Assembly: GCA_038891095.1 (NCBI GenBank)
Contig: JAWAEV010000001.1
Span: forward strand, 5,248 to 69,247
Direction of reading: 5' to 3'
From: Candidatus Altiarchaeota archaeon
Lineage (GTDB): Archaea; Altiarchaeota; Altiarchaeia; IMC4; QMZM01
Length of the DNA stretch: 64,000 nucleotides
Positions 6,089-64,000 of this stretch are shown one piece after another. The position numbers were made by a program, and so were the translations under genes. Positions within the stretch are counted from its first letter, which is position 1; each line of letters begins with the position of its first letter. Below the pieces are notes generated by a model. The model made no database searches. It saw only the letters and a program-made list of their open reading frames with translations, and was not told the origin of the DNA.

Positions 6089-8266
6089 ATGAAAAAAAAT
6101 TTGCTCGCGCTTGGAATTTTTTACTTTGCATTCCTTCTAATTTTTTCAATTTTTGTTTTTGGAATAGAAGAAGAGCAGTTCAATGAGAAATGGAATTACA
6201 CCACTGGTGGTATGATAACAGATCTATGCATTGGTGATTTTGATAACGATGGTAAAAAAGAAATTGCTACAGTAAAATCAATTGAGACATTAGTTGGCTC
6301 CGGTGGAGATTTTAGAATAGTGAACTCAACTGGGAATTTAATTTGGAAAAAAGATATTGGATGTAAAATTTATTCAATCTTTTGTGAAGATATAGATAAC
6401 GATGGCTATGATGAAATTCTTGTTGGCTCATGCACTCATTTGCATGTTTTCAATTATACTCAAGAAAAAGAATGGCAATTTTTCACTGATCATGGTGCTG
6501 TGAAGATAATTTTTCCTTTTGATTTTGATAATGATGGAAAAAAGGAGTTATTGATTGCTACTACTGACCCAATGTCGAAAAGAAATAACAACATTTACCT
6601 CGTAGATAACAGAGGACAGTTAATATGGAAAAAAAATTTACCTTCTTCTCCAAATTCAATAGATGTCAAGGATATAAATTCTGATGGTTTAAAGGATATC
6701 ATTGTAGCTTCTGGCATTTCATCTATTGGAATTTCTGCATACAAAGGTTGGATTACGGTTTATAATGAAAACGGCACTTTACAATGGGAAGTGAGAATTA
6801 AAAATGGTGCAGAAAGTGTAAAAATTACCGAAATAAATAGGGATAAAAAACCTGAGATAATTGTTGGGTCACTTTATACAATTTACTTGTTTGATAGTAA
6901 TGGAAATGAAAAAAAGCAGTATAATATAAGTGGTCATGCATATGCCTTAGAAGTAATTAATGCCAAAGATGAAATTCTCTTGATCGTAGGAACAAATGAT
7001 CTAATTGCATTAGATTCGAATTTCAAATTTAAGTGGAGTTATAATACTGCTGATGAGGTATATGACATAAAAATTTTTGATATAGACAATGATGGAAATG
7101 AAGAAATTTTTGCCGTTTCTGATAGAGTTTACTTGCTAAGCAATGGAGGTAAATTACTCTGGCAATCTCCAAAAGCAGCGGGGGTGAAAAAAATTGTAAT
7201 TGATGATTTAGAAAATGATAAGTACAATGAGATAATTTTTGGCACTCTTGACGGGAAGATTTATGTATATGAAACAAAAGGGAATGTAAAGGGGAAACTT
7301 GCTGAAGAGAATTTCTTAAAGGCAGAAAAGGCATTTAACGCTGGTAATTATGATAACTCAACCAACTATGCAAAAATTGCTAAGAAACTATATGAAGAGT
7401 TGAATATGAATTCTAAAGCAAAAGAGTGTGATGAGCTGATTAAAAAAATAAATGCAATTATCTCAGAAGATTTAAGAAATAAAAAAGAGGCAGATGAAAA
7501 TTACAACAAATCAATGAATTTTTTTATGAATGAAAATTTCAGTTCTGCATTAACTTTCGCCAGAAAGGCAAAATTGTTGTATTCTGGAATAAAAAAGAAA
7601 ACTCCAGAAATTGAGAAAAACATTGAAAATTGTGATATCATTGTTAAGAATTCTATCGATGGTTTAAAGTTAAGGGCTGCTTTATTATATGAAAATGCTA
7701 CATATTTATACGGAACTAAAAATTATGGACTTTCTTTGAATTTATCAAGAGAGATTTTAGATATTGGAATACTACTCAAAGACAAGAATATTAGCTTAAA
7801 AGCAAATTTAATGATCGCAAATTCTCTGTGCAAAATTTCTGAAATAGAATATAGAGAGAGTAGAATAGAGAGTGCAGTGTTAAATGCAAAAGAGGCGATT
7901 GAAATTTACAATGAGTTAGGGAATGAAACAGCAGGTAATGAAATTTTAGAATGCTCCAAAATTCTTGAGAAAATTGAAAAAAAACAAAGCTATGCAGAAA
8001 AACCAAAGGAAGTTAACATGAGTAATATTACAATAATTCTCATTGTTTTAATTTTAGCAATATTTTTAGCTGTGTTTTTCATTAGAAAAAAACATTATAT
8101 AGTTAGTAAAGATACTACTAAAACTGAAGTCGAAAATAAAGTTGAAGCCGTGGAAATAAAAACAATAGATGAACTAAAAGAAAAATCCGAAAAGAAGGAA
8201 CTTGAACCAATAAAAAAAGATAAGTTTAAAGGTATTGGAAGATCTCTAAAGCCTTTAAAGTTATAA
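6089..8266 (+). CDS. Surface protein with 7 FG-GAP/Ca-binding beta-propeller repeats, a helical TPR-like region, a C-terminal TM anchor and a Lys-rich tail (integrin-alpha-like architecture)
   Basis: N-terminal hydrophobic signal/anchor. Seven spaced DxDxDGxxE loops (DFDNDGKKE, DIDNDGYDE, DFDNDGKKE, DINSDGLKD, INRDKKPE, DIDNDGNEE, DLENDKYNE). TM segment ITIILIVLILAIFLAVFFI followed by a K/E-rich tail. Confidence 0.6.
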   Translation: MKKNLLALGIFYFAFLLIFSIFVFGIEEEQFNEKWNYTTGGMITDLCIGDFDNDGKKEIATVKSIETLVGSGGDFRIVNSTGNLIWKKDIGCKIYSIFCEDIDNDGYDEILVGSCTHLHVFNYTQEKEWQFFTDHGAVKIIFPFDFDNDGKKELLIATTDPMSKRNNNIYLVDNRGQLIWKKNLPSSPNSIDVKDINSDGLKDIIVASGISSIGISAYKGWITVYNENGTLQWEVRIKNGAESVKITEINRDKKPEIIVGSLYTIYLFDSNGNEKKQYNISGHAYALEVINAKDEILLIVGTNDLIALDSNFKFKWSYNTADEVYDIKIFDIDNDGNEEIFAVSDRVYLLSNGGKLLWQSPKAAGVKKIVIDDLENDKYNEIIFGTLDGKIYVYETKGNVKGKLAEENFLKAEKAFNAGNYDNSTNYAKIAKKLYEELNMNSKAKECDELIKKINAIISEDLRNKKEADENYNKSMNFFMNENFSSALTFARKAKLLYSGIKKKTPEIEKNIENCDIIVKNSIDGLKLRAALLYENATYLYGTKNYGLSLNLSREILDIGILLKDKNISLKANLMIANSLCKISEIEYRESRIESAVLNAKEAIEIYNELGNETAGNEILECSKILEKIEKKQSYAEKPKEVNMSNITIILIVLILAIFLAVFFIRKKHYIVSKDTTKTEVENKVEAVEIKTIDELKEKSEKKELEPIKKDKFKGIGRSLKPLKL

Positions 8267-10024
8267 TAAAAATTTTCTTTTCTGATGTTTTAGCAATGAT
8301 GGCTCATATTTCAAAAGCAATTCTTCTTCTTTTATTTTTTCAAGTTTTCTTATTTCTTTTTGTTTTATCTCTGAGAAAAGATATTTATTTCTCTCATAAA
8401 TTTCCAAAAGTTCTGATGTTCTCTCACCACTTTGCATCTCTGGAAATATAACAAAATCTGCTCCTTTCTCATAAAGCTCAAGAGCATTATCAATTGACTC
8501 TGCTCTCACAACAAAAAATGCACCTGAATTTAGCTCTCTAACTTTTTTCAATAGCATTAAGTTATCATCATGTGTAGGAATTGTTGATATCACTAACTCA
8601 GCGCCCTTTAGATTTACCCTTTCTAAAATTTCTAAGTCTTCGATGTCACCGTAAATACAATTTATCCCTTGGGTTAGCAATTTCTTTATTATGTCAGGAT
8701 TATAATCAACTACTAAAAATTTCTTTTTTAGTCTCATTAAAGTTTTCACAATCATATAACCAGTACGATGACACCCAAAAACAATAGTATGATTTTTTAG
8801 AGATTCTGAGATTGATTCAAAATCTTTTTTCTTTGGAATTTTGTTAGAGAAACCAAGAAAAGGAACAAAAATGCGATATAATTTTGATGAATGTATTATC
8901 ATATATGAACTTATCGTCAATGTAATCAATGTCACCCAAGCTATCGAAGAGAGAATATCTTTTTGAATATGCCCAAGTGAAAGTCCTTCTGAAACTAATA
9001 CCAATGAAAATTCAGATACTTGAGCAACAGAAATTGCAGTTAGAAAAGATGTTCTCTTGCTATATCCTAAAAGAGAGGCAATTAAGAACATTATGATTAC
9101 ATTTCCGATTAAAACAAAAAGTGAAAATATAATTACTTCTTCTATAACTAAAGGTTTTATCGAATCATGAATTGTTGCTGAAACTTGCATACCTAAAGAG
9201 GCAAAAAAAATTGTTGCAAAGAAATCTCTCATTGATCTGACTCTACTAACAATTTCTAAATTATATGGAAATGATGCCAATGATAAACCAGCAAGAAATG
9301 CTCCTATGCTGATAGAAAAGCCAAGAAGATATGAGATAAAAGAGAAGACAAAACAAACTGACAAAGCAAATAAAAATAAAAGCTCTAACGACCTTGAGCT
9401 GAATCCTATCAATGGTGGTAAAATAAATCTGCCTATAACTACTGAAATTGAAAAAAATCCAAATCCTTTTACTACAGAGAGTAGCAATGGCACTATAGAA
9501 AAATTTCCTAAATTTGGCAATGCTGCCAATACAACTATTGTTATAACATCCTGAACTAAAAGAATCCCTAAGACAATTTTTCCATGCAAAGTTTGTAACT
9601 CATTTATATCAGAAAGTAATTTCACTACAACAGTTGTCGAACTTATTGTTAATGCAAAGCTAACATAAAATGCTTCTATTTGAGATAAACCAAAAAGAGA
9701 GGATAATAAAAAACCGAAAATAAAGGTAAATAAAATTTGTCCTATTCCACAGGATATTGAAACCCTTCCAACATTCTTTAGCTTTTTAATATCTAACTCC
9801 AAACCAACAAAAAATAGAAGAAATGCTATGCCAAGTTCAGCAAAAATTTTTATAATTTCTTCATTTGTAACTAATCTCAATCCAAAAGGACCAACAACTA
9901 TGCCTGCAATGACATATGCAACTACTAAAGGCTGCTTGAGTATCTTAGCAAAAAAAGCAAATAATGTTGATGAAAATATTATTATGCCTAAATCAAATAA
10001 CAAAAGCATCCCTTGAGCTTCCAT
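8261..10024 (-). CDS. CPA2 (Kef/NapA-type) monovalent cation:proton antiporter with C-terminal RCK/TrkA-N domain
   Basis: About 12 TM helices, then a Rossmann-like TrkA-N segment (HTIVFGCHRTGYMIVKTL...VVDYNPD). Confidence 0.75.
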   Translation of the reverse strand: MEAQGMLLLFDLGIIIFSSTLFAFFAKILKQPLVVAYVIAGIVVGPFGLRLVTNEEIIKIFAELGIAFLLFFVGLELDIKKLKNVGRVSISCGIGQILFTFIFGFLLSSLFGLSQIEAFYVSFALTISSTTVVVKLLSDINELQTLHGKIVLGILLVQDVITIVVLAALPNLGNFSIVPLLLSVVKGFGFFSISVVIGRFILPPLIGFSSRSLELLFLFALSVCFVFSFISYLLGFSISIGAFLAGLSLASFPYNLEIVSRVRSMRDFFATIFFASLGMQVSATIHDSIKPLVIEEVIIFSLFVLIGNVIIMFLIASLLGYSKRTSFLTAISVAQVSEFSLVLVSEGLSLGHIQKDILSSIAWVTLITLTISSYMIIHSSKLYRIFVPFLGFSNKIPKKKDFESISESLKNHTIVFGCHRTGYMIVKTLMRLKKKFLVVDYNPDIIKKLLTQGINCIYGDIEDLEILERVNLKGAELVISTIPTHDDNLMLLKKVRELNSGAFFVVRAESIDNALELYEKGADFVIFPEMQSGERTSELLEIYERNKYLFSEIKQKEIRKLEKIKEEELLLKYEPSLLKHQKRKFLL

Positions 10025-10039
10025 TCTTTTTATTGGGCT

Positions 10040-10528
10040 TTACAAATGAAAAATTTTTGCTTTTAAATTTTTTGTGTCAAGTAATGCTACTGTTTTATTT
10101 CCTGTTAAATATCCGCATGTTTCACCGGGATTTATTATAAGTTTTTTCTTCTCTGCTTTAATTTCTGCCTTATGAGAATGTCCAAGAATTATTATGTCAT
10201 ATTTATTATACTTTATCAACGCTTTTGAGATTTCATCATCAGTACCATGATACAAAGCAATAAATTTTCCATTTTGCTCCAATTCATGAAAATCCTTTAG
10301 CTCACATCCAATTTTTTTATAAACTTCAGCTAAGTGAACTCTATCACCATCATTATTGCCAAAAACTCCTATAAGCTTTGAATTCAAATTTTTAAATTCT
10401 TTTGCTGTAAATGGTGCTACATAGTCTCCAGCATGTAAAACAACTGAAACATTCTGTCTATTAAAAAAATTTACTGCCTTTTTTATTGCATCTAAATTGT
10501 CGTGAGTGTCAGATAATATGCCGATCAT
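10040..10528 (-). CDS. MJ0936/YfcE-family metallophosphoesterase (phosphodiesterase)
   Basis: MIGILSDTHDN...HAGD...GNND...GHSH motif series. 162 aa. Confidence 0.75.
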   Translation of the reverse strand: MIGILSDTHDNLDAIKKAVNFFNRQNVSVVLHAGDYVAPFTAKEFKNLNSKLIGVFGNNDGDRVHLAEVYKKIGCELKDFHELEQNGKFIALYHGTDDEISKALIKYNKYDIIILGHSHKAEIKAEKKKLIINPGETCGYLTGNKTVALLDTKNLKAKIFHL

Positions 10529-10638
10529 TCTTCTTAGATAATTCTCAGATAATTATCTTCTTTACTACTTTAAATACTTTAGAAGAAAGGAAAATTGAAA
10601 CAGCAAAACAAAAAGCAAAATAAGAAAAAATTAAAAGA

Positions 10639-10665
10639 AAAACCGTTAGCTAAACTAACGGTTTT
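10639..10665 (-). terminator. Perfect 11-bp-stem hairpin (AAAACCGTTAG / CTAACGGTTTT, 5-nt loop) followed by a T-run on the minus strand, immediately downstream of MC1
   Basis: Inverted repeat read directly from the sequence. On the transcribed strand it is followed by TTTCTTTTAATTTTTTCTTATTTT. Confidence 0.5.
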
Positions 10666-10683
10666 TAGACTAAAAAGAAATAT

Positions 10684-10974
10684 TTATTTCTTAACTTTTT
10701 CAACCTTCACTTTCTTAACATTTGCTTCCCAGATTTCATCTGGCATCCAAGATGGAGCGTTTTCTGGCTTTTTAACCTTCTTTCGAGAGCCCTTAAACAC
10801 ATGAATTCTCCACATTCCGTCTTTTTTTCTACCATGCTCCCTTAACCTAATGTCTGTATATCCTCTTCTAGCTGCTTTTAAAGCTGCATTTCTTGGTGCT
10901 GTCCCTGTAAAAACAGCCACCTCCTTATTCCCCTCCAAAAGGGAATAATATTTTTTCTTTCCTTTCTTTGCCAT
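10684..10974 (-). CDS. Chromosomal protein MC1 (archaeal non-histone chromatin protein)
   Basis: 96 aa. VFTGTAPRNAALKAARRG...IRLREHGRKK...HVFKG...PENAPSWMPDEIW matches conserved MC1 blocks known from Methanosarcina MC1. Confidence 0.8.
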   Translation of the reverse strand: MAKKGKKKYYSLLEGNKEVAVFTGTAPRNAALKAARRGYTDIRLREHGRKKDGMWRIHVFKGSRKKVKKPENAPSWMPDEIWEANVKKVKVEKVKK

Positions 10975-11193
10975 TTTTCACCACTCTTTTCTTTTATTTA
11001 TTTTTATTTTTTATCATACATATATAAGAAAAAGGAGTATAAAAATAGGCCAACTGTAGGAACACATAAATGTAAGTTTAAATTTTTGTCATGTTATATT
11101 GATAAAGTTCACAAAAATAAAATTTAAATAGAAATGTGAAATTAACATAAAAGTATAGAAACACTGTGGTTTTAACTTATTTTATAAAATTTT

Positions 11194-11931
11194 ATGGATA
11201 TAGAAAAAATAGTTAATTGGATAAGGGAACAAGTTAAAAATGCAAACTCAAAAGGTGTTGTATTAGGCTTATCTGGCGGCATAGATTCTTCAGTCACTGC
11301 TGTTCTCTGCAAAAAGGCCTTTCCTAAAAATACTTTGGCTTTGATAATGCCATGTTTCAGTAACAAAAAAGATATTGAAGATGCAAAATTGATTGCAAAG
11401 AAATTTAAAATTAAATATAAAAAAATTGATTTGGGTTCCACTCTTGAAAAGTTGCTTTATGATATTGATAAAAAGAGATATAACGAAAAATGTGAGAAAA
11501 ATTTAGAAATTGCAAATATGAAAGCAAGATTAAGAATGCTAACTCTTTACTATTTTGCAAATAAGCTGAACTATTTAGTTGTGGGATGTGGAAATAAATC
11601 TGAAATCAAAATTGGTTATTTTACAAAATATGGTGATAGTGCTTGTGATATCATGCCAATAGGAAATTTTCTTAAGAGAGATGTAAAAAAAATTGCAAAA
11701 GAAATTGGAATTCCAAAAGAAATAATTGAAAAACCGCCAAGTGCGGGCTTATGGAAAGAACAGACTGATGAAAAAGAACTTGGGATTTCTTATGATGAGT
11801 TAGACACTGTAATAGAAAAAATTGAAAAAAATGATCTTGAGTGTGTGAATAAAAAAATTCTTAAAAAAGTTCAAGACATGATAAAAAAATCTGAACATAA
11901 AAGGAGGATGCCAAAAATTTTTCTAAGATGA
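11194..11931 (+). CDS. nadE: NH3-dependent NAD+ synthetase
   Basis: PP-loop SGGIDSS. The 245-aa single-domain NadE form. Its stop overlaps the next gene's start (ATGA). Confidence 0.85.
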   Translation: MDIEKIVNWIREQVKNANSKGVVLGLSGGIDSSVTAVLCKKAFPKNTLALIMPCFSNKKDIEDAKLIAKKFKIKYKKIDLGSTLEKLLYDIDKKRYNEKCEKNLEIANMKARLRMLTLYYFANKLNYLVVGCGNKSEIKIGYFTKYGDSACDIMPIGNFLKRDVKKIAKEIGIPKEIIEKPPSAGLWKEQTDEKELGISYDELDTVIEKIEKNDLECVNKKILKKVQDMIKKSEHKRRMPKIFLR

Positions 11932-27559: not shown

Positions 27560-28525
27560 ATGAGGGTTTTGATTTTTGGAGCTGAAGAAGGAAAGTTTCC
27601 AAGCTTTTCTTATCAATGTAAAAAAGCATTTGAGGAGTTAGGCCATGAGGTAAAAGTTTTAAGCTATAGAAAATTCAAGTTTCATAAGATAAAATTCACA
27701 AATTTTTTACTTAACAAATATCTTCTTCACTTTGCTGAAAACTATAATCCAGATTTGTTATTTGTTAATAAAGGTGCAAACATTCTTCCAGGCATTATTG
27801 AAAAACTATCCAAAAGAGGAATTAAAACAGCTAACTGGACATTAGACGATCCTTTTGGAAATTTCAATAAAGAGAATAGGATTAACAACATTCGGGAATA
27901 TGATTACTTCTTTGTTTTTGATCCTTATTATTTACCTGAGCTTAGAGATATCAATCCTAATTCTTACTATCTTCCATGCTGTGCTTCAAAACATGTACAT
28001 ACTGAGATAATTCCTTTAAATGAGAGGGAGTATAAATATGATGTCTCGTTTATTGGTTCTCATGAAAAAAAGAGGGAAAAACTCTTTAGCGAGTTAATAG
28101 ATTATAATCTTAGAATTAGCGGTTATAGATGGGAGAAAATTAAAAGTAAGCTGAAAGAGAAAATAGATAAAAAAATTTATATTGGTTATGAAATGTGCAA
28201 GGAGTTAAATTTGTCAAAGATAAATTTGAATGTTCACAGTGCGCATTCCTATAGAGGAGCAAACTTAAGAACTTTTGAAATTCCTGCAACAAATAGTTTT
28301 ATGTTATCTGACTATATTGAAGAGATTAAAAATTTATTCAGAATAGGCAAGGAAGTTATTTGCTACCATAATGTTTCTGAACTAAAGGAGTTAATAGATT
28401 ACTATCTAAACAAGGAGAATGAAGAGGAAAGAAATAAAATTACAAAAGCAGGGCATGAAAGAGTTTTGAAAGAGCATAGTATGAAGCACAGGATTGAAAG
28501 AATAGTTAGAATAGCAGGTATTTAA
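27560..28525 (+). CDS. CgeB-like/DUF3880-type putative glycosyltransferase
   Basis: Soluble 321-aa protein on the opposite strand within the glycan island. Only weak resemblance to the CgeB family (spore-coat glycosylation). Uncertain. Confidence 0.4.
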   Translation: MRVLIFGAEEGKFPSFSYQCKKAFEELGHEVKVLSYRKFKFHKIKFTNFLLNKYLLHFAENYNPDLLFVNKGANILPGIIEKLSKRGIKTANWTLDDPFGNFNKENRINNIREYDYFFVFDPYYLPELRDINPNSYYLPCCASKHVHTEIIPLNEREYKYDVSFIGSHEKKREKLFSELIDYNLRISGYRWEKIKSKLKEKIDKKIYIGYEMCKELNLSKINLNVHSAHSYRGANLRTFEIPATNSFMLSDYIEEIKNLFRIGKEVICYHNVSELKELIDYYLNKENEEERNKITKAGHERVLKEHSMKHRIERIVRIAGI

Positions 28526-30183
28526 TTTTCTATTCTTTTTAGTATCAATATAGTTGGATTAACAAATTCAGGATTTGGTTTTAGAGTAAGAGAGCGAAGT
28601 ATAACACTATCTAACTTCTCTATTGATCCAAATCCCGGTGAGCCTCCACTATTGTAAATCCCTCTCCCAAATTTTGCAACTATTCTGTAATTTTTTCTTT
28701 CATTTATTAAGTCTGAGAAGTATTTTGTTCTTTCTGGAAATGCGTTAGTATCAACGAGGTATCTTTCATAATATAAACTACTTAAGATGATGTAATCTGA
28801 TTTTCTTGATTCCAATCCACTTATGAAATCTTCAATAGATCCATTGTTTTTTGGTTGGAATACTGTTATATTTTCTGGTATATTTGGATTATAGTAATAT
28901 AACTCAATCGTTGAATTTTTATCAATGTTTCTCTCTATCCATTCCGTTGCGAGATATCTTGAGTCATTAATGAAGAGTATGTCAGCAGAGATAGTATAAC
29001 AGAAAGAGTAGGGTATAATGAATGCTAGCACAAAGATTGTAATTTTCTTTTTAAATTTTAGCATATCATAGAAAAATTTTCCATTTAAAATTGCTATAAA
29101 TGGAAGTAAAGGGACAGTATATCTCATCGGTGCAAAATTCCATTTTCCTACTATGAGGTAAAATAGAACAATAAATAAGAAAAATAACAGAGTATATTTA
29201 TATGAATTATCTTCTATTCTGATTAATTTGAGTGCTGTATAAGTTAAAGCAATAATAGAAACTAAAAATAATGGTAATCCCATACCATTTATCAAGTTTA
29301 CTATATGAGATATATAACCGGGATAAGGATTTCTTATTCCTTTGTATAGTTGAACATCAGTTATCGCGGTAATTACATCTTTTTTAAAATTTGAAAAATC
29401 GATTATTGCAAATGGAGTTCCAATTAAAAAACCTATGAATATCATTGAAAATCCTAAGGAAAATTGTTTATTAATAAGAGAATTAAGCGAAATTTTTTCT
29501 TTGAACAGCAGATGAGAGATAAAAAAGAGGAGTATCATCAAACCAGCTGTGTATTTAGTTGAGATAGCAAAACCTATAAATAAACCTGAGAGTAGATAGT
29601 ACCCCATATCCTGTTTTTTGATAAGTTTTATTATGAACAACATAGATAAGATAATCCAAAATGTCGTTGATATGTCAACTGTTGCGAAATGAGAGAAATT
29701 TACAAAACTCATTGTAAATGCTAAAAGAATAGATGAGATAATTGCTGATCTCTTGTTGTATACTTCGCGTGCTATGAGATAAACAAAAAGGACAATTAAT
29801 GCTCCCATAACCACTGAAATAGCTCTTGAAATAAGAAGCGCATTTGTCATTAATTTAAATTGTTCATTTGTATAGGGAGGTTTGAGAGTGAGAGGTATTT
29901 TATCTAACTCGCCGGTTAGTTTTAGTTTGAGATAATAGGGCAACAAAGCCAGTCCGACAGTATATTTGTGTAGTGAGCCTGATATGAAATTATGTGGGTT
30001 TGGATCCATTTGCTTAGCCATAGTTAGTACATAGATTGTAACCTCATCTGGATGCCATTTATATGGAGTCCCCCACCAAATACCAATAACATTTAAGAGA
30101 AAACTTATTATGCAAATTACTATTATGATTTTATTTTCTTTACTTCTTAATTTTTCAGTTAATAAAGAAAATTTTATATTCAT
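28522..30183 (-). CDS. GT-C glycosyltransferase of the PMT/ArnT type (GT39/GT83-like, lipid-carrier dependent)
   Basis: 553 aa and polytopic. First extracytoplasmic loop carries HPDEVTIY (PMT-type DE motif). Hydrophobic core typical of the PMT_2 family. Confidence 0.6.
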   Translation of the reverse strand: MNIKFSLLTEKLRSKENKIIIVICIISFLLNVIGIWWGTPYKWHPDEVTIYVLTMAKQMDPNPHNFISGSLHKYTVGLALLPYYLKLKLTGELDKIPLTLKPPYTNEQFKLMTNALLISRAISVVMGALIVLFVYLIAREVYNKRSAIISSILLAFTMSFVNFSHFATVDISTTFWIILSMLFIIKLIKKQDMGYYLLSGLFIGFAISTKYTAGLMILLFFISHLLFKEKISLNSLINKQFSLGFSMIFIGFLIGTPFAIIDFSNFKKDVITAITDVQLYKGIRNPYPGYISHIVNLINGMGLPLFLVSIIALTYTALKLIRIEDNSYKYTLLFFLFIVLFYLIVGKWNFAPMRYTVPLLPFIAILNGKFFYDMLKFKKKITIFVLAFIIPYSFCYTISADILFINDSRYLATEWIERNIDKNSTIELYYYNPNIPENITVFQPKNNGSIEDFISGLESRKSDYIILSSLYYERYLVDTNAFPERTKYFSDLINERKNYRIVAKFGRGIYNSGGSPGFGSIEKLDSVILRSLTLKPNPEFVNPTILILKRIEN

Positions 30184-50870: not shown

Positions 50871-52058
50871 TTATCTGTTAAATATCCTTTGCAAGAGCAC
50901 AGTCGCATAACTCCCTTTTTTTAATATGAATGACAGAGTAACTTTAAACCTTCTTTTTTTCCATCTATCATTTATCTCATCAACTTGCGCTTCTGAAATT
51001 TCAAAATTTTCTGGCATTGCAACAATTTCTCTGTCATAGAGTTTGAAAAAATTCCCTGTCTCTTTTTGGATATCAAAATCCTTAATGCGTATACCTTCGG
51101 AGGATAGCACCTCTTCTACAATTTCTTTTTCAAAATCTGTAAGCTTTACATTATGGCTTAACATCTTGAAAGTTCTTGGGATTTTCCTTATCTCATTAGG
51201 AGTTAAATTTCTATAGAAAATCAACTCACCTAGGCTATATTTTGAAGTGTAAAGTTTTCTATTATCTATACATCTCTTCAGAATTAATTTTACGCATTCA
51301 TTCCATAGATAGCTTTGATATGCAGAAACAAAAATCTCTCTTAAATTTTTAGGTATCTTTTTATATGCTAAAAGCCAACTCTCTGTCTTTCTATATTCCT
51401 CCAAAATTTCTGAAAAAAGTTTGTTCTCTGTTTTCAGAGTTTTTATTTCATTCCATTTCTTTGCTATTTTCCGCTTCTCTTCCTTTCTCTTCCTATTTTC
51501 GTGTTTTGTATAACTTGTGAGGAAAATTTTAACTGCCTCCTCATAATTTTTTTTCATTATAAATTTCGCAATAAATTTACCGTGGATAACACTCCCAAAT
51601 CTCTGAGAGCCAAAATAATTCACAAAACCACATTTTTTAACATCATTAGCATTTTCCTCTATAGCTTTCAATTCTTCATTCTTTATGTCTCTAACTGTAA
51701 TCATAAATTTATTTCCTTTCAAAAGACCTATTTTTATTGGTTTTTCTACATATCCTAAAAATGTTAATTTTAGATTTCTTTCATCTAAATTTTTCAGTTC
51801 ATATTTTGAAGGTATTGTTAAGTATTGCTTTGTTATTGCGTGTCTATCCTTCAAACCAGCAATTTTAAATTCAGAAAGAGGAATTTTATTATTTCTTGAA
51901 AGATATTTCAAAACAAAAAAAGTTTCTAAGCCTCTTTTCTCAAGAAGGTAAATTTTATATTTCGCTTTAGTAGAGCTATTTTCAAGAATTTCAAATTTAT
52001 TTATCTCCTCAACTTGAAAGTCATCAACTCTTTGCCTAAGTTTCACTTTTGTCCTCAA
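50871..52058 (-). CDS. truD: tRNA pseudouridine(13) synthase TruD/Pus7 family
   Basis: N-terminal DFQVEE and the TruD motif NYFGSQRFG. Confidence 0.75.
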   Translation of the reverse strand: MRTKVKLRQRVDDFQVEEINKFEILENSSTKAKYKIYLLEKRGLETFFVLKYLSRNNKIPLSEFKIAGLKDRHAITKQYLTIPSKYELKNLDERNLKLTFLGYVEKPIKIGLLKGNKFMITVRDIKNEELKAIEENANDVKKCGFVNYFGSQRFGSVIHGKFIAKFIMKKNYEEAVKIFLTSYTKHENRKRKEEKRKIAKKWNEIKTLKTENKLFSEILEEYRKTESWLLAYKKIPKNLREIFVSAYQSYLWNECVKLILKRCIDNRKLYTSKYSLGELIFYRNLTPNEIRKIPRTFKMLSHNVKLTDFEKEIVEEVLSSEGIRIKDFDIQKETGNFFKLYDREIVAMPENFEISEAQVDEINDRWKKRRFKVTLSFILKKGSYATVLLQRIFNR

Positions 52059-53181
52059 TTAAAACTCGCTCATACAAATTAATTAATTTCCCAACAACTT
52101 TGTCTTTTGTGAAATTTTCTTCAACTCTAATTCGAGCTTTTTTTCCAAGTTCATTAGCAAAAGTTTTATTTGAAAGTATAGAGATTATTGCTTCGCTTAA
52201 CTGCTTAGAATTCTTTGGTTCAACTAAAATTCCTGCGTCTCCTAAAACAAAAGGCATTCCAGAAATTTTTGTTGAAATACAAGCAACTCCTGAACTCATT
52301 GCCTCAAGTAATGCAATCCCAAATGCTTCCTGTCTTGTGATAGATGGCAAAACAAAAACATCTGCAGATCTAAAAATCAATGGCAGCTCATCAGCATTTG
52401 CATTTATGAAAGTAATGTCATCTACACCTCTACTTTTTTCTTTTAATTTCTTTTCCAACGGTCCCGAACCAGAAATTACAAGTTTTGCATTTTTTATTTT
52501 TTTCTTCACTTCTTTAAATGCCTCTATGAGATAAGAGATTCCTTTGTATGGAACTAATCTGCCAACAAACAAGATTACTTTTTTGTTAGTTAAAGAATAT
52601 TTTTCTTTTACTTTTCTCAATTTTTCTAGATTTATTTCAGGAGAAAATTTTTTCTCATCAACAAAATTTGGAATTATCTCAATTTTATTAATAAATTTTC
52701 TTAGAATTTCTGATTCATTCACATAATTTGGTGAGGTCGCAATTATAACCTTTGAATGCTTTAAGAGAACTTCCTGAAAGAAACCATAGAAAAATTTTAG
52801 AATTTTGTAATGCAGACCTTCTTTTATTATATCAGCGTGGTATGTCACAATTAATGGTTTTTTTCTTATGATAGAGGCAAAAAATGCAAAAAAAGAACTG
52901 AATGGATCAGGTAAATGCAGGTGTATTAGATCATAATCTTTCTTTAGTAGATTTATCAACATGCCTAAAGCAAATGGATCCCTAAAAACTGTAAACAAAA
53001 TCCTACTGCGATGAATTTCTACACCATGATAAATTTCATATTTAGCACTCTTTGGAAAATTTGATGAAAGCACAATAACTTTATGTTTCCTTTCAACAAG
53101 TCCTTCTGAAATTCCCAATACATTGTTCTCAATGCCACCCGAATGAGGATAAAAATATTTGGTTATCTGTAAAATTTTCAT
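52036..53181 (-). CDS. GT4 glycosyltransferase
   Basis: EAFGIALLEAMSSGVACISTKISG signature. Confidence 0.8.
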   Translation of the reverse strand: MKILQITKYFYPHSGGIENNVLGISEGLVERKHKVIVLSSNFPKSAKYEIYHGVEIHRSRILFTVFRDPFALGMLINLLKKDYDLIHLHLPDPFSSFFAFFASIIRKKPLIVTYHADIIKEGLHYKILKFFYGFFQEVLLKHSKVIIATSPNYVNESEILRKFINKIEIIPNFVDEKKFSPEINLEKLRKVKEKYSLTNKKVILFVGRLVPYKGISYLIEAFKEVKKKIKNAKLVISGSGPLEKKLKEKSRGVDDITFINANADELPLIFRSADVFVLPSITRQEAFGIALLEAMSSGVACISTKISGMPFVLGDAGILVEPKNSKQLSEAIISILSNKTFANELGKKARIRVEENFTKDKVVGKLINLYERVLIEDKSET

Positions 53182-53964
53182 TTGATATTAAAAATTTATA
53201 CTTCAAATCAATATATTTACTTCAACATTAAAATGAATCTTGAAAAAATGAGGGAAAATCTTATAGGGTTCTTAAGAGAAATTTCCGAGGTTATCTTAAC
53301 TCTGTTAATAATAATTTTAGTTTCAAGATTAGTTTTTGGAGCAAATATGTTAGTACCTTTAGTTGCAGTAAGTTCTAAAAGTATGTTACATCAAAGCGAT
53401 TCATGGAAAAGTTGGTTGATTTCACAAGGTTTTTCAGAAAAAGAAATAGAAAAATTTCCAATGCAGAATGGATTTGATAAAGGGGATATGATCTTAGTTA
53501 TCACACCAAATGGAAAAGGAAAAATTTTTAATTTTGAATTTCCAACATTGTTTCCAGAAACAAAGTTAGGGGATGTTATAATTTATGAGCGAGATCTTGC
53601 CCATTTTGGTGGTGAGCCGATAATTCATAGAGTTGTTGGCATAGCACATATAAAAAATTGGAATTTAGAACGCATTGATGGCACTCTCAGCTGCATAAGT
53701 GCTGAAGAAATAGAGAAGAAATTTATACCTATGGTTGTAGATTGCATAAATAGAAAGCAAAATTGCCCATATAAGAGCTATCCAAAAAAAGGGGATTTCA
53801 ACTTTTACATAACAAAAGGAGATAATAATGCTGCAGTTGACCAATGCGGAACAATTGCCTACCCAGTAAATGACGAACAACTTCTCGCAAGAGGATGGAT
53901 ACGGCTTCCTTACATTGGTTGGTTAAAACTTCTCTTGAATGAAATTATAAATTTGTTCTTATAA
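53182..53964 (+). CDS. Signal peptidase I (S26B, Sec11-like)
   Basis: N-terminal TM, Ser box VSSKSM, KGDMILV box and IIHRVVG His box. Long C-terminal extension. Confidence 0.55.
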   Translation: MILKIYTSNQYIYFNIKMNLEKMRENLIGFLREISEVILTLLIIILVSRLVFGANMLVPLVAVSSKSMLHQSDSWKSWLISQGFSEKEIEKFPMQNGFDKGDMILVITPNGKGKIFNFEFPTLFPETKLGDVIIYERDLAHFGGEPIIHRVVGIAHIKNWNLERIDGTLSCISAEEIEKKFIPMVVDCINRKQNCPYKSYPKKGDFNFYITKGDNNAAVDQCGTIAYPVNDEQLLARGWIRLPYIGWLKLLLNEIINLFL

Positions 53965-54264: not shown

Positions 54265-54897
54265 ATGATGCATTTATATAAATTATATAACAAATATTTT
54301 TTGTGGTATATGATGGATATTACATTTGTTTTGTTATCATATATCCTTGGACCAATCGCATCTGTTCCTTATGCAATTAAATTTTTGAATTTAAGTCCTG
54401 TTGAAATTTTTCTTTACTTATCTTTTTTGTATCTTGCTGCTCTTCCTTTAATTTTTAAAATATTTGAATTTTTCAGACACAAAGAAATTTATGAGGAAAG
54501 TATAATAAGAAAAATTTGTAGAGTATGTGATATAAAAGCAAAGGAGGAGATTGAAAAAGTTAGAAAAACAGGTAATGTGTTGATAGAAAATTTTGAAAAT
54601 AAGTTGGGACATTTAGGTTTTTATGTTGCAATTTCAATATTCACATTTTTATTTGGAATTTTTCTTGCCTCAATTCTTGCTTATTTTTTGAAGATTAGAA
54701 AAGATAGGGCAATGTTATGCATTTCAATAGGGGCACTCATAGGAAATTTTTTTTGGGTTTTGGTTATAACATACTCATTACCAAGGCTTCAATCTGAATT
54801 TACGCTTATTCTCTTTATTCTTGCATTTCTGTTATATGGAAAAAGAAGGGAAATTGAAATTTTAAGAAAAGTTTCAGGAAAATTATTACATTCATAG
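54265..54897 (+). CDS. Membrane protein of unknown function
   Basis: 210 aa, 4-5 TM helices. Confidence 0.4.
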   Translation: MMHLYKLYNKYFLWYMMDITFVLLSYILGPIASVPYAIKFLNLSPVEIFLYLSFLYLAALPLIFKIFEFFRHKEIYEESIIRKICRVCDIKAKEEIEKVRKTGNVLIENFENKLGHLGFYVAISIFTFLFGIFLASILAYFLKIRKDRAMLCISIGALIGNFFWVLVITYSLPRLQSEFTLILFILAFLLYGKRREIEILRKVSGKLLHS

Positions 54898-54959: not shown

Positions 54960-56279
54960 ATGGCTCAAAACTCAAAGTCAAAGTCGCAGGGAGCAACTGA
55001 GTATCTTCTGAATTATGGTTGGGCTATTATATTAATTGCTGCGATTGGTGTATCTATGTATTACCTTGGAATTTTCAACTTAAGTTCTCAATCAACTCTA
55101 GTAAAAGCATCTGGATTTTCAAAGATAAAACCATTAGAACCAAGTATAATTTTAACCCCTTCATGTGAATTTACTGGAATTTTCGTTAATGGTGCCGGAA
55201 GCGTTGTAAATATTTCAAAAATAGAAATTTATAATGTTGTTGATAAGAAAAATTGTGATACTTCGAAAGGAACAGGACTTTTTGATCCAGGCGATGCTAT
55301 TGAAGTAAAAGCAGAAAATTGTTGCTCTCAAGACCATAAACCAGAGGAGCAATATAATCTCAAGATAAATATTAGCTACACAAGCCAAATTGCTGGAGTT
55401 AGATTTGATACTTTAGACCAAGGTGTTATCTATGGGGCTTATTCTAAAGGATATAAACTTCCTAAATGTGAAGAACAAGGCGGTTTTTGTTGTGCACCAC
55501 CGTTTAACACTTGTAAACCAGGAAAAATGCTAAGTGCTTCAGATTGCTCACCTTGCTGTCAAGGTCCTGGAAATTCAAATTGTGATAAACTAACTACTAC
55601 GACTACAAGCACAACAACTACTTCTGTTACTACAACTACAACAACATCAACTACTACATCAACAATTACAACAACAAAAATGAGTACGACAACAACGACT
55701 TCCAGCACTACTACAACTACGACTAGTACGACGACAACAACTATACCTTGTTACACTTATGATAGTTGTAATGATTGTGTAAGTCATAGTTGTGTGTGGA
55801 ACATTAGAATTGTGCATGTGCCACCACCAGAGGGTCCTGAAATAATTGAATGGTGTGCAGAATCTTGTTTGGGATTAGCAACATGGTGCGCTCCTCCAAA
55901 CTCTTGCGGTGGTTTTATAACAACGACTACAACAACCACAACAAGCACTACTACAGTCACTACAACTACAACCACAAAGACCACTACCACAACGACAAGC
56001 ACGACATCGACAACAACAACTGTAAAGACATTATGTTGGAGTAGTAGCTACTTATACAGAACAGCTGCTAATATGTACAAATTCTGTAAGTGCACAACAA
56101 ATACATATGGATACTCAGGCTATACCAATGCAGGGTATACCTCAGGAAGAAGATATTTAGATACAGGAAATAATCTAAATTGGGGCACTACATCAATCAC
56201 TAGTTATATGGTCTCTCAAGTTAGATGCCCAAACGGAGCGTGGTATACTACATCCCAAAATTACTATTACCCACCATAA
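54960..56279 (+). CDS. Secreted archaeal type-IV-pilin-like (class III signal peptide) protein with two poly-Thr mucin-like linkers and Cys-rich modules
   Basis: N-terminus KSKSQG/ATEYLLNYGWAIILIAAIGV resembles the archaeal prepilin (DUF361) signal. TTTTSTTTT... runs of about 50 and 34 residues. At least 20 Cys, including CCSQDH, CCAPPFNTC and CSPCCQGPGNSNC. Confidence 0.5.
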   Translation: MAQNSKSKSQGATEYLLNYGWAIILIAAIGVSMYYLGIFNLSSQSTLVKASGFSKIKPLEPSIILTPSCEFTGIFVNGAGSVVNISKIEIYNVVDKKNCDTSKGTGLFDPGDAIEVKAENCCSQDHKPEEQYNLKINISYTSQIAGVRFDTLDQGVIYGAYSKGYKLPKCEEQGGFCCAPPFNTCKPGKMLSASDCSPCCQGPGNSNCDKLTTTTTSTTTTSVTTTTTTSTTTSTITTTKMSTTTTTSSTTTTTTSTTTTTIPCYTYDSCNDCVSHSCVWNIRIVHVPPPEGPEIIEWCAESCLGLATWCAPPNSCGGFITTTTTTTTSTTTVTTTTTTKTTTTTTSTTSTTTTVKTLCWSSSYLYRTAANMYKFCKCTTNTYGYSGYTNAGYTSGRRYLDTGNNLNWGTTSITSYMVSQVRCPNGAWYTTSQNYYYPP

Positions 56280-58628: not shown

Positions 58629-59185
58629 AATTAATTATGGAAAACGAATATGTTTTTAGGATATCCTGTTTGCCTTTTATTTCTATTTGACAGAATAAGT
58701 TGAATAGCAAGATAGAAATTCACATAAAAGAAGTTACGATGAATGCAAATTTTGGAAGTTCTAAGGAAGTTATAAAAAATTTATTCTATGAAAGAATTGC
58801 TGAAATAACATTTAGTTCAGTTATTAAAAATGTTAGTTCACAAAATTAAAGGAGGAGGTATTTTAATAATTTTTATAAATTTAAAATTTATAAGGTTGGC
58901 AGTGACCATAGTCCATCTTCTGTCAGCTTTTTAAGCCACGCTTAAGTTAGCTGTTTTGGCATTCGTCTAAGCGTTTTAAAAAACTTGCACCCAACGCAAC
59001 ATTTGTCTCACAAGATTTTGCAATTTTCTCTCAGATAGGATACTTCATAGAAATTGCAAAATCATCTCATCTCTCGTATGTTGCTTTGCCTCTCGGCAAT
59101 TAAAAATTTATTGGGTGGATGGAGCTTCCTCATTCTCATTTAAGAGAACGGTAGCCAAATGAGTCACTACCTCCGAATATTTCTT

Positions 59186-62170
<2,985 letters not shown>

Positions 62171-62298
62171 ACCCAAAACACTTTGGTTTTGAGTTGCATC
62201 TAAATTTTTATTAATAAATTTTTATAATGAAATTAAGTAAGTATATTAAAATTTTATTTATTTTAACCATATCAATTAAATCCCGACGAGCAGAGATT

Positions 62299-62370
62299 GG
62301 ACCCGTCGGGATTTGAACCCGAGGCCTTCCGCTTGCAAAGCGGACGATCTACCAGACTGATCTACGGGCC
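62299..62370 (-). tRNA. tRNA-Ala (anticodon UGC) in the 16S-23S spacer
   Basis: Reverse complement folds as a cloverleaf: GGCCCGT acceptor, GTTCAAATCC T-loop, CUUGCAA anticodon loop. CCA is not encoded. Confidence 0.9.
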
Positions 62371-62537
62371 CGTATAAGGCCTAAAGCCATCATGGCCCAA
62401 AATAGTAACATAAAGCAAATTATTCTTTTTAATTGTTTTTTATTTTCTCTGTTCTCTAAGCTCTTAACTCTTAATCTATCTTTACTCTACTTTACTTAAT
62501 AGTAGGGTCCTATTTTGGCATCCAGTGTGAACAGATA

Positions 62538-64000
<1,463 letters not shown>

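Follow-up and report, generated by a model that had tools for sequence, protein, structure and literature searches.

The window analysed here is the whole 64,000-nucleotide (64-kb) stretch of a contig from Candidatus Altiarchaeota archaeon. It is archaeal (large subunit (LSU) and small subunit (SSU) rRNA, an archaeal RNase P RNA; about 30% G+C). On its forward strand, at 54960-56279, lies an open reading frame (ORF) for a protein of 439 amino acids (aa) that resembles archaeal type IV pilins at its N-terminus and carries Cys-rich modules on Thr/Ser stalks behind it. The gene and its parts are listed below, with AlphaFold confidence given as predicted local distance difference test (pLDDT).

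54960..56279 (+): whole gene, modular type IV pilin-like protein, 439 aa plus stop, ATG start, from the ORF list
54960..54986 (+): predicted class III leader, residues 1-9 (MAQNSKSKS), from the family motif over 222 relatives
54987..55064 (+): N-terminal hydrophobic alpha-helix, residues 10-35, QGATEYLLNYGWAIILIAAIGVSMYY, from the AlphaFold helix (pLDDT 87-97) and hydropathy
55104..55439 (+): globular pilin domain, a beta-sandwich with nine predicted beta segments, residues 49-160
55467..55583 (+): module A, an 8-Cys knot directly after the pilin domain, residues 170-208, C-x6-CC-x6-C-x10-C-x2-CC-x7-C
55593..55742 (+): stalk 1, a Thr/Ser tract, residues 212-261 (50 aa)
55749..55907 (+): module B, 8 Cys, residues 264-316, C-x5-C-x2-C-x4-C-x20-C-x3-C-x6-C-x5-C
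55920..56021 (+): stalk 2, a Thr/Ser tract, residues 321-354 (34 aa)
56022..56276 (+): module C, distal, 4 Cys, rich in Tyr, Thr, Ser, Asn and Gly, residues 355-439

The architecture is a pilin module followed by the 8-Cys knot (A), stalk 1, the 8-Cys module (B), stalk 2 and the 4-Cys module (C). The reality of the gene is backed by an identical NCBI protein (MEM4347016.1, 'hypothetical protein QW802_00290', Candidatus Altiarchaeota archaeon), by a syntenic orthologue in a sister strain (P0257) and by homologues at 45-66% identity. The initial annotation, made from the DNA letters and an ORF list, had described a protein with at least 20 Cys. The ORF is exact, and 24 Cys were counted (5.5%, versus 1.24% in the window's proteome), which is the highest Cys content of all window ORFs. 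The Cys residues form four groups, each even in number: 4 in the pilin module (residues 69-122), 8 at 170-208, 8 at 264-316 and 4 at 359-423. All are retained in P0257, including all 8 of module B. Since the count per module is even (4, 8, 8, 4), internal disulfides are proposed, and modules A to C are probably closed by them.

Thr makes up 20.7% of the protein (91 residues), versus 4.0% in the window's other ORFs, and a Thr/Ser-rich 30-residue stretch is found in this ORF only. The two Thr/Ser linkers of about 50 and 34 residues noted earlier between Cys modules were measured at residues 212-261 and 321-354. Both tracts are at least 88% Thr plus Ser and lack Pro, unlike classical proline/threonine/serine mucin domains. 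The Thr codons are mixed (ACA, ACT, ACG, ACC) and the DNA repeats imperfect (65-78% matches), so the tracts are maintained at the protein level and do not represent a simple slippage run. The Pfam 'Mucin' match to the protein is weak (E 0.066, under the cut-off) and reflects composition only.

The N-terminus (MAQNSKSKSQGATEYLLNYGWAIILIAAIGV) has a single hydrophobic stretch by hydropathy, at residues ~16-39. It had been compared to class III prepilin signals, and the comparison was borne out by membership in a family whose cleavage motif is conserved across 222 relatives. Judged by that motif, a prepilin peptidase likely cuts between Ser9 and Gln10 (KSKS/QGATEY, with the slash at the cut), giving Gln at +1, Glu at +5 and Tyr at +6. 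Around this point the window protein reads KS/QGATEYLLNYGWAIILIAAIGV (Gln10 = +1, Glu14 = +5), and the family consensus is KG/QGAMEYLMTYGWAILVVMIVG. The relatives are the 222 of 256 retrieved proteins that match a search pattern with Gln+1 and Glu+5 fixed, and their count is uninformative for those two positions. Elsewhere the motif is well kept. Leaders are 4-12 aa long, position -2 is Lys or Arg in 213 of 222, and Tyr stands at +6 in 221 of 222, with Gly and Ala at +2 and +3 and a hydrophobic helix after +6. At position -1, Gly is found in 182, Ala in 33 and Ser in 6. In a 60-sequence alignment made without the pattern, Q10 and E14 are nearly invariant (at least 90%), together with Y15, Y19, W21 and G30.

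The cut proposed in the initial annotation, KSKSQG/ATEY, is probably two residues off, as the residue before Gln is Gly or Ala in 215 of the 222 relatives and the one before that is almost always basic. The cut was placed after Ser9 and not after Gly11 because the family pattern then has Glu at +5 and Tyr at +6. With its 9 aa, two of them Lys, the leader MAQNSKSKS falls within the 5-13 aa of short basic leaders. EppA-processed pilin-like proteins of Methanococcus maripaludis have leaders of 5-13 aa ending in Gly, with Gln+1 and Glu+5 (PMC3875500). In the window protein Ser at -1 follows Lys at -2, and this Ser is shared with P0006, the closest relative outside the sister strain.

Several searches support the assignment of residues 1-168 to a large unannotated type IV pilin family. 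When residues 1-211 were used as query in a word-indexed search, four relatives came up; in three of these the N-terminal domain is complete and is accompanied by a Thr/Ser tract and a Cys module at the end. Of 1.84 billion cluster representatives, an index-free search with a profile of residues 1-168 matched 4,267 at E<=1e-3 and 443 at E<=1e-10. A second indexed search returned 2,732 matches. Most family members are 150-190 aa long and align end to end, which is the size of a pilin, and the short ones have a median of 2 Cys. Named members come nearly all from metagenome-assembled genomes (MAGs) of Altiarchaeota/Altiarchaeales, often with several paralogues on a single contig. The only annotation met in the family is the Joint Genome Institute (JGI) name 'UPF0333 family' for P0226, and the searchable literature on Altiarchaeota pili and pilins yielded no description of it. 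A hidden Markov model of the family would re-annotate thousands of 'hypothetical proteins' as pilins.

The AlphaFold model of residues 1-168, built with 60 family sequences, has a mean pLDDT of 91.2, with a helix at 10-35 and a beta-sandwich at 49-160. The helix is presumed to be the polymerisation and membrane-anchor helix. Conserved features of the globular domain are the motifs SGFSKIKPLE and GIFVNGAG and the pair Cys99/Cys121. The best PDB profile match of the module is 8q30 (E 0.016), identified through PMC11178815 as the Aap pilus subunit of Sulfolobus acidocaldarius. The first twelve Foldseek matches include a Halobacterium archaellin, 8q30 and a Pyrobaculum pilin, with weak E values of ~3e-3 to 9e-3. 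Prediction of a pilin fold had been named as a check on the initial annotation, and archaeal pilins and archaellins are indeed among the structural matches of this confident model. As modelled, the fold is compatible with an archaeal pilin. By itself it is non-diagnostic; the signal motif, helix and sandwich are diagnostic in combination.

Short family members were then placed in their genomic surroundings. All four that were looked up on long contigs lie within ~1 kb of a T2SSE gene and two T2SSF genes, in the following conserved Altiarchaeota type IV pilus (T4P) loci.

L005, 1-17471: conserved Altiarchaeota T4P locus
L006, 1-10492: conserved Altiarchaeota T4P locus
L010, 1-11536: conserved Altiarchaeota T4P locus
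L011, 1-11007: conserved Altiarchaeota T4P locus

The order in these loci is an FG-GAP beta-propeller protein (680-820 aa), uncharacterised proteins (mostly secreted or membrane-anchored), the T2SSE ATPase, two single-domain T2SSF proteins, a NERD protein on the opposite strand and 1-3 genes of the pilin family. The paralogues adjacent to the machinery are short (155-170 aa). L005 also has four paralogues flanking genes for a PMT_2 glycosyltransferase (GT) of the GT-C type, a GT4 and a GT2. A pair of adjacent platform genes, each for a single domain, is the hallmark of one clade of type IV filaments, the Epd/Tad-like one (PMC6668835). The linkage to T2SSE and T2SSF is the strongest evidence that the family consists of pilins.

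This linkage also bears on the possibility that the window protein is no pilin. It could instead be an ordinary secreted or type II membrane glycoprotein, associated with the S-layer or hamus or binding carbohydrate, whose class III resemblance arose by chance. In favour of such a protein, Pfam and NCBIfam give no pilin match, the Ig-like sandwich is a generic fold, and Altiarchaeota are known for hami made of S-layer-like protein (PMC4460559). A chance resemblance sits badly with a motif that fits the [KR][GA]/Q...E5 rule and is conserved across hundreds of relatives, and with machinery linkage in 4 of 4 loci, and this explanation is regarded as extremely unlikely. The hamus subunit of Candidatus Altiarchaeum hamiconexum comes from the same phylum, and the hamus is filament-forming, extracellular and probably glycosylated (PMC4460559). 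The subunit is S-layer-like, reportedly shares no similarity with pilus proteins and has an S-layer-like N-terminus that is not seen in the window protein, which unlike it has a class III signal and a pilin head (PMC4460559). A hamus-related identity was rejected on these grounds. The data point to a separate Epd/Tad-like T4P system in Altiarchaeota, a phylum known for one exotic appendage, the hami.

Among characterised systems, the closest likeness is to the EppA-dependent (Epd) pilins of M. maripaludis, with which the window protein shares a short basic leader, Gln+1, Glu+5 and a hydrophobic helix (PMC3875500). The related Altiarchaeota loci resemble Epd/Tad systems in having one T2SSE and two separate single-domain T2SSF genes (PMC6668835), and larger pilin-like paralogues are encoded away from the machinery in M. 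maripaludis as well. The differences are also clear. The leader ends in Ser in the window protein and in Gly or Ala in most relatives, and the Altiarchaeota family has a conserved Flp-like Tyr+6, unlike M. maripaludis pilins. The window pilin module has a ~120-aa beta-sandwich head, unlike the Epd/Flp major pilins of ~55-65 aa. There is no DUF361/PF04021 match, and the Altiarchaeota loci have the ATPase gene ahead of the platform genes. Thr stalks and Cys modules, both found in the window protein, are not known from any described Epd pilin. Identity to the subunits of solved archaeal adhesive pili (S. acidocaldarius AapB 8q30, S. solfataricus 8fjs, Pyrobaculum 8fk7 and 6w8u) and to archaellins is 7-14%. 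These solved pilins lack Glu+5 (as stated for Sulfolobus, PMC3875500), a C-terminal extension, stalks and Cys-rich modules.

In its overall design the protein is comparable to bacterial modular pilins (PilB and PilC of Streptococcus sanguinis, CofB of enterotoxigenic Escherichia coli, TcpB of Vibrio cholerae), in which a pilin carrier bears ligand-binding C-terminal effector modules (PMC8179133). These are minor pilins that are probably located at the tip, and their effectors are highly variable, with lectin-like modules common (PMC8179133). The window protein falls under the same definition, having a complete pilin module (1-168) followed by extra modules (170-439). It differs from the bacterial proteins in its archaeal-type beta-sandwich head, in poly-Thr linkers of 34-50 residues instead of short loops, and in three small orphan Cys-rich modules instead of one recognisable domain; there is no sequence homology. 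The bacterial survey covered IPR012902 pilins only and mentions archaea 0 times (PMC8179133). The concept of a modular pilin is thus established, and what is new here is the lineage, the architecture and the variation of the tip between strains. The idea is extended to Archaea, with poly-Thr stalks and tiny Cys-knot modules added.

The C-terminal modules are less widespread than the pilin module. Module A is kept in a long subfamily (P0001, P0006, P0007, P0008, P0156) and has no Pfam match and no PDB sequence match. Used as PDB sequence queries, modules A, B and C all returned nothing meaningful. Module B matches the PSI/plexin repeat PF01437 at E 0.013 with 16.2 bits, below the 23.1-bit cut-off and with only residues 3-20 aligned. 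Its first 18 residues therefore weakly resemble the start of a PSI repeat, a resemblance only. Among the 222 family members, 11 have a pilin module, an optional module A, a Thr/Ser stalk and a terminal Cys module. The usual terminal module of those 11 is a ~35-aa unit (..CGxSDGxCP...C.C..DPDC) that is absent from the window protein. Two stalks with three modules are found only in the window protein, P0257 and P0006, and beyond residue ~202 the window protein is no longer similar to P0006. In other long family members the pilin module is followed by Lcl_C, DUF2341, ConA-like lectin (LamG) or beta-propeller domains according to Pfam.

The orthologue P0257 (489 aa, Altiarchaeota) is the second member of the window protein's 90% cluster. 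Its gene lies at 10001-11470 of the locus L012, which is syntenic with the window at 46.7-58.6 kb. The two proteins are identical over residues 1-250 and then diverge. Stalk 2 has 84 residues in P0257 versus 34 in the window protein and is thus 50 longer. Module B differs by 2 aa changes. Module C, of 85 residues, differs by 9, while residues 1-211 show none (Fisher p 1e-5). Counted by the Nei-Gojobori method, the differences in module C are 9 nonsynonymous (Nd) and 1 synonymous (Sd), with a ratio of nonsynonymous to synonymous proportions (pN/pS) of ~2.3. For 11 neighbouring genes together the counts are Nd 21.5 to Sd 43.5 (versus module C, Fisher's exact p = 0.001), and pN of those genes is 0 to 0.01. 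The pilin module (residues 1-168) has 0 changes in 168 codons. No other part of the protein evolves as fast as module C. An unchanged carrier, a stalk of variable length and a distal module that changes quickly make up the pattern that would be expected of an exposed recognition surface. A rapidly changing tip could mark strain-specific interactions in uncultured subsurface archaea. As a separate observation, stalk 2 of P0257 carries an internal duplication of a ~22-aa unit (KITTTTTTTTTSTTTATTTTTT).

Taken together, it is fairly likely that the window protein is a low-abundance modular type IV pilin and filament-borne adhesin, located at the pilus tip or decorating its surface, whose distal module attaches to a ligand outside the cell. 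The architecture alone is the ground for assuming a binding function, since modules A to C have neither a confident model nor homologues of known function. We infer a course that would begin with insertion of the precursor into the membrane through the hydrophobic helix near its N-terminus. A prepilin (class III) peptidase with its gene outside the window would cut between Ser9 and Gln10 and release MAQNSKSKS. The exposed helix (Gln1...Glu5-Tyr6), with the beta-sandwich pilin module behind it, would then be taken up by the pilus machine. That machine would be an Epd/Tad-like T2SSE ATPase with two T2SSF proteins, as seen beside the short paralogues in other Altiarchaeota genomes, and would be encoded outside the window. 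The remainder of the protein would be cargo outside the cell. Module A would sit on the pilin module, and modules B (8 Cys) and C (4 Cys) would be held off the filament by the 50- and 34-residue Thr/Ser stalks.

Several results weigh against this reading. In the window itself, tblastn with the L005 machinery detected no T2SSE or T2SSF, and the window protein was the only family member it found (34% identity, E 2e-23). A scan of genome contigs with a T2SSE alignment returned only the two query loci, and the machinery of the source genome was not found. Neither the window nor the related loci that were scanned showed a recognisable A24-type prepilin peptidase gene. Pfam and NCBIfam searches of the whole protein, of its first 60 residues and of 60 relatives gave no pilin or class III model (PF04021 Class_IIIsignal/DUF361, PF07790 Pilin_N or the NCBIfam equivalents); the only matches were compositional or sub-threshold (Mucin, MAP_0585, CAL67264_fam). 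Ser stands at -1 in only 6 of the 222 relatives, and Gly is the last leader residue in published EppA-type proteins. For the distal part, a word-indexed search of 5.8 billion proteins detected no homologue of modules B and C outside the sister strain. Structure prediction of the Cys modules, which had been put forward as a check in the initial annotation, gave no confident model: in the full-length AlphaFold run (4 sequences) the C-terminal modules and stalks have pLDDT <50, and that model was not used for fold search. The signal in the ratio of nonsynonymous to synonymous substitution rates (dN/dS) comes from 10 substitutions between two MAGs only. The stalk 2 length difference could be a real polymorphism or a short-read assembly artefact in repeats.

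The lack of linked machinery would also suit a surface protein that stays anchored to the cell and is never polymerised. Here the class III-type N-terminus would be a membrane anchor, cleaved or not, and the protein would contribute to a glycoprotein 'brush'. Sulfolobus sugar-binding proteins with class III signals (the bindosome) work as cell-anchored proteins of this kind. In favour of this, the window gene is isolated, as the 64 kb contain no T4P gene, some 400 aa would lie outside the cell, and the uncommon Ser at -1 might make cleavage less efficient. Makarova et al. also note that some proteins with class III signals are not pilus components (PMC4858521). On the other side, stand-alone pilin genes are common in archaea (PMC4858521). 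The pilin module is also intact, with Glu+5/Tyr+6 and all nearly invariant family residues present, and it is very strongly constrained, as the 168 unchanged codons indicate. A non-polymerised anchor is on balance unlikely.

The protein could alternatively be the major subunit of a 'bottle-brush' filament, in which every subunit carries the three modules on glycosylated stalks and the fibre is thick and mucin-coated. The C-terminus of archaeal pilin domains faces outward, 11 of 222 members share the design of stalk and terminal Cys module, and long flexible linkers could relieve steric clashes, a possibility acknowledged for modular pilins (PMC8179133). Module A, however, follows the pilin domain with 8 Cys and no linker and would crowd neighbouring subunits, the machinery is adjoined by short paralogues and not by long ones, and only 30 of 222 members reach a length of 220 aa or more. 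Bulky modular pilins have moreover been modelled as compatible with the tip only (PMC8179133). A major subunit of this type is considered very unlikely. The size of the protein, the placement of module A right behind the pilin head and the presence of short paralogues beside the machinery in other genomes favour a minor, tip or decorating pilin. The earlier proposal of a pilin-like fibre subunit is thus retained in part: the family, the motif, the fold model and the T4P linkage of short members agree with it, but a main subunit is less likely than a minor modular pilin.

The stalks of the proposed minor pilin are probably O-glycosylated and thus extended. Near-homopolymeric Thr/Ser tracts are known from eukaryotic mucins, from glycoside-hydrolase linkers and from the Thr-rich O-glycosylated region of the haloarchaeal S-layer glycoprotein. 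As in those mucin- and linker-type tracts, the stalks lie between (predicted) disulfide-rich extracellular modules, and their length varies between strains. They differ in that glycosylation of the window stalks is only predicted, the one hint being PMT-family GT-C genes. If O-glycosylated, the two stalks would be stiff and, at ~0.25 nm per residue (a general figure of mucin biophysics), extended to ~12 and 8 nm, together roughly 20 nm. To our knowledge the enzymes of archaeal O-glycosylation have not been established. The following gene is a candidate for glycosylating the stalks.

28522..30183 (-): PMT-family GT-C glycosyltransferase, Pfam PMT_2 E 8e-19, PMT E 3.8e-13

This gene is 25 kb from the pilin-like gene, unlinked to it and inside a glycosylation gene island. 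A PMT_2 gene is found directly beside a family pilin in L005, and a gene matched in size and position is present in L006, with no Pfam match on record. The island covers ~25 kb of the window (~11000-36100), and most of it consists of genes for sugar-nucleotide epimerase/dehydratase-like proteins, GT2 and GT4 enzymes, a predicted flippase-like membrane protein and methyltransferases in addition to the PMT/PMT_2 GT-C. From the Pfam matches of some of its ORFs, it is likely a surface glycan or protein glycosylation cluster.

A broader and more speculative proposal is that the window protein and ~10 stalked relatives form a class of 'fishing-line' adhesins. These would present strain-specific, disulfide-knotted recognition modules on variable, glycosylated poly-Thr stalks of a pilus-borne pilin. 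The distal module would be under diversifying selection (for recognition of a partner, host or surface, or as a virus target), and the stalks would be glycosylated by the PMT-family GT-C encoded next to family pilins. As a whole this proposal is quite unlikely. If true, it would mean that a substrate and its enzyme are defined for the first time for protein O-glycosylation in Archaea, and that Altiarchaeota have a second appendage system, separate from the hamus. The window protein is in any case a concrete substrate for studies of archaeal O-glycosylation.

The neighbours of the window gene are a PF06695 membrane protein, a DUF2582 winged-helix protein, a signal peptidase I candidate, a GT4 and TruD, with a Rad50-like ATPase downstream. 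The first of these lies directly upstream.

54265-54897 (+): PF06695 ('Sm_multidrug_ex') membrane-protein gene

PF06695 genes also occur inside T4P loci (L005 2812-3276, L006 2172-2666, L011 2422-2907). The idea that the window protein's neighbour is a dedicated partner was nevertheless rejected as unsupported, as it is ~21% identical to the T4P-locus copies and no such gene is present beside P0006. The archaeal-type signal peptidase I candidate (53182..53964, +) scores 42.8 bits with TIGR02228, below the 51.85-bit cut-off. The initial annotation had mentioned it as lying 1 kb upstream. Class III signals are cut by prepilin peptidases and not by signal peptidase I, so this gene is irrelevant to the case and a link to it was rejected. 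The candidate has 243-260 aa against a model of 158 positions, matches it in three stretches, apparently carries insertions, and is protein-identical in the sister strain.

In the T4P loci, the leading beta-propeller might play a PilY1-like role, and the L005 3973-5289 protein has a class III-like N-terminus with a weak cupredoxin match (E 0.0021). The window itself encodes a secreted FG-GAP beta-propeller of 725 aa at 6089-8266 (+), 21-26% identical to the first T4P-locus gene; it is followed by a Na+/H+ exchanger and not by pilus genes. At L001 7769-10720 and L009 7056-10921, the long stalked relatives P0003 and P0156 each come last in a conserved cassette of four genes. The three secreted proteins encoded ahead of them are homologous between L001 and L009 (E 1e-10 to 1e-34) and have no Pfam match on record; no counterparts were found in the window.

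Two further features of the window are unrelated to pili. The TruD and GT4 ORFs, at 50871-52058 (-) and 52036-53181 (-), overlap by 23 nt when the longest, TTG-start TruD ORF is taken, while the sister-strain annotation has a 391-aa TruD and an 11-nt overlap with GT4. The SSU - tRNA-Ala(TGC) - LSU operon occupies 59208-64000 (-), with no 5S rRNA reported in the window. It lies upstream of the RNase P RNA gene (58898-59171, -), which is 36 nt from the LSU rRNA 3' end on the same strand.

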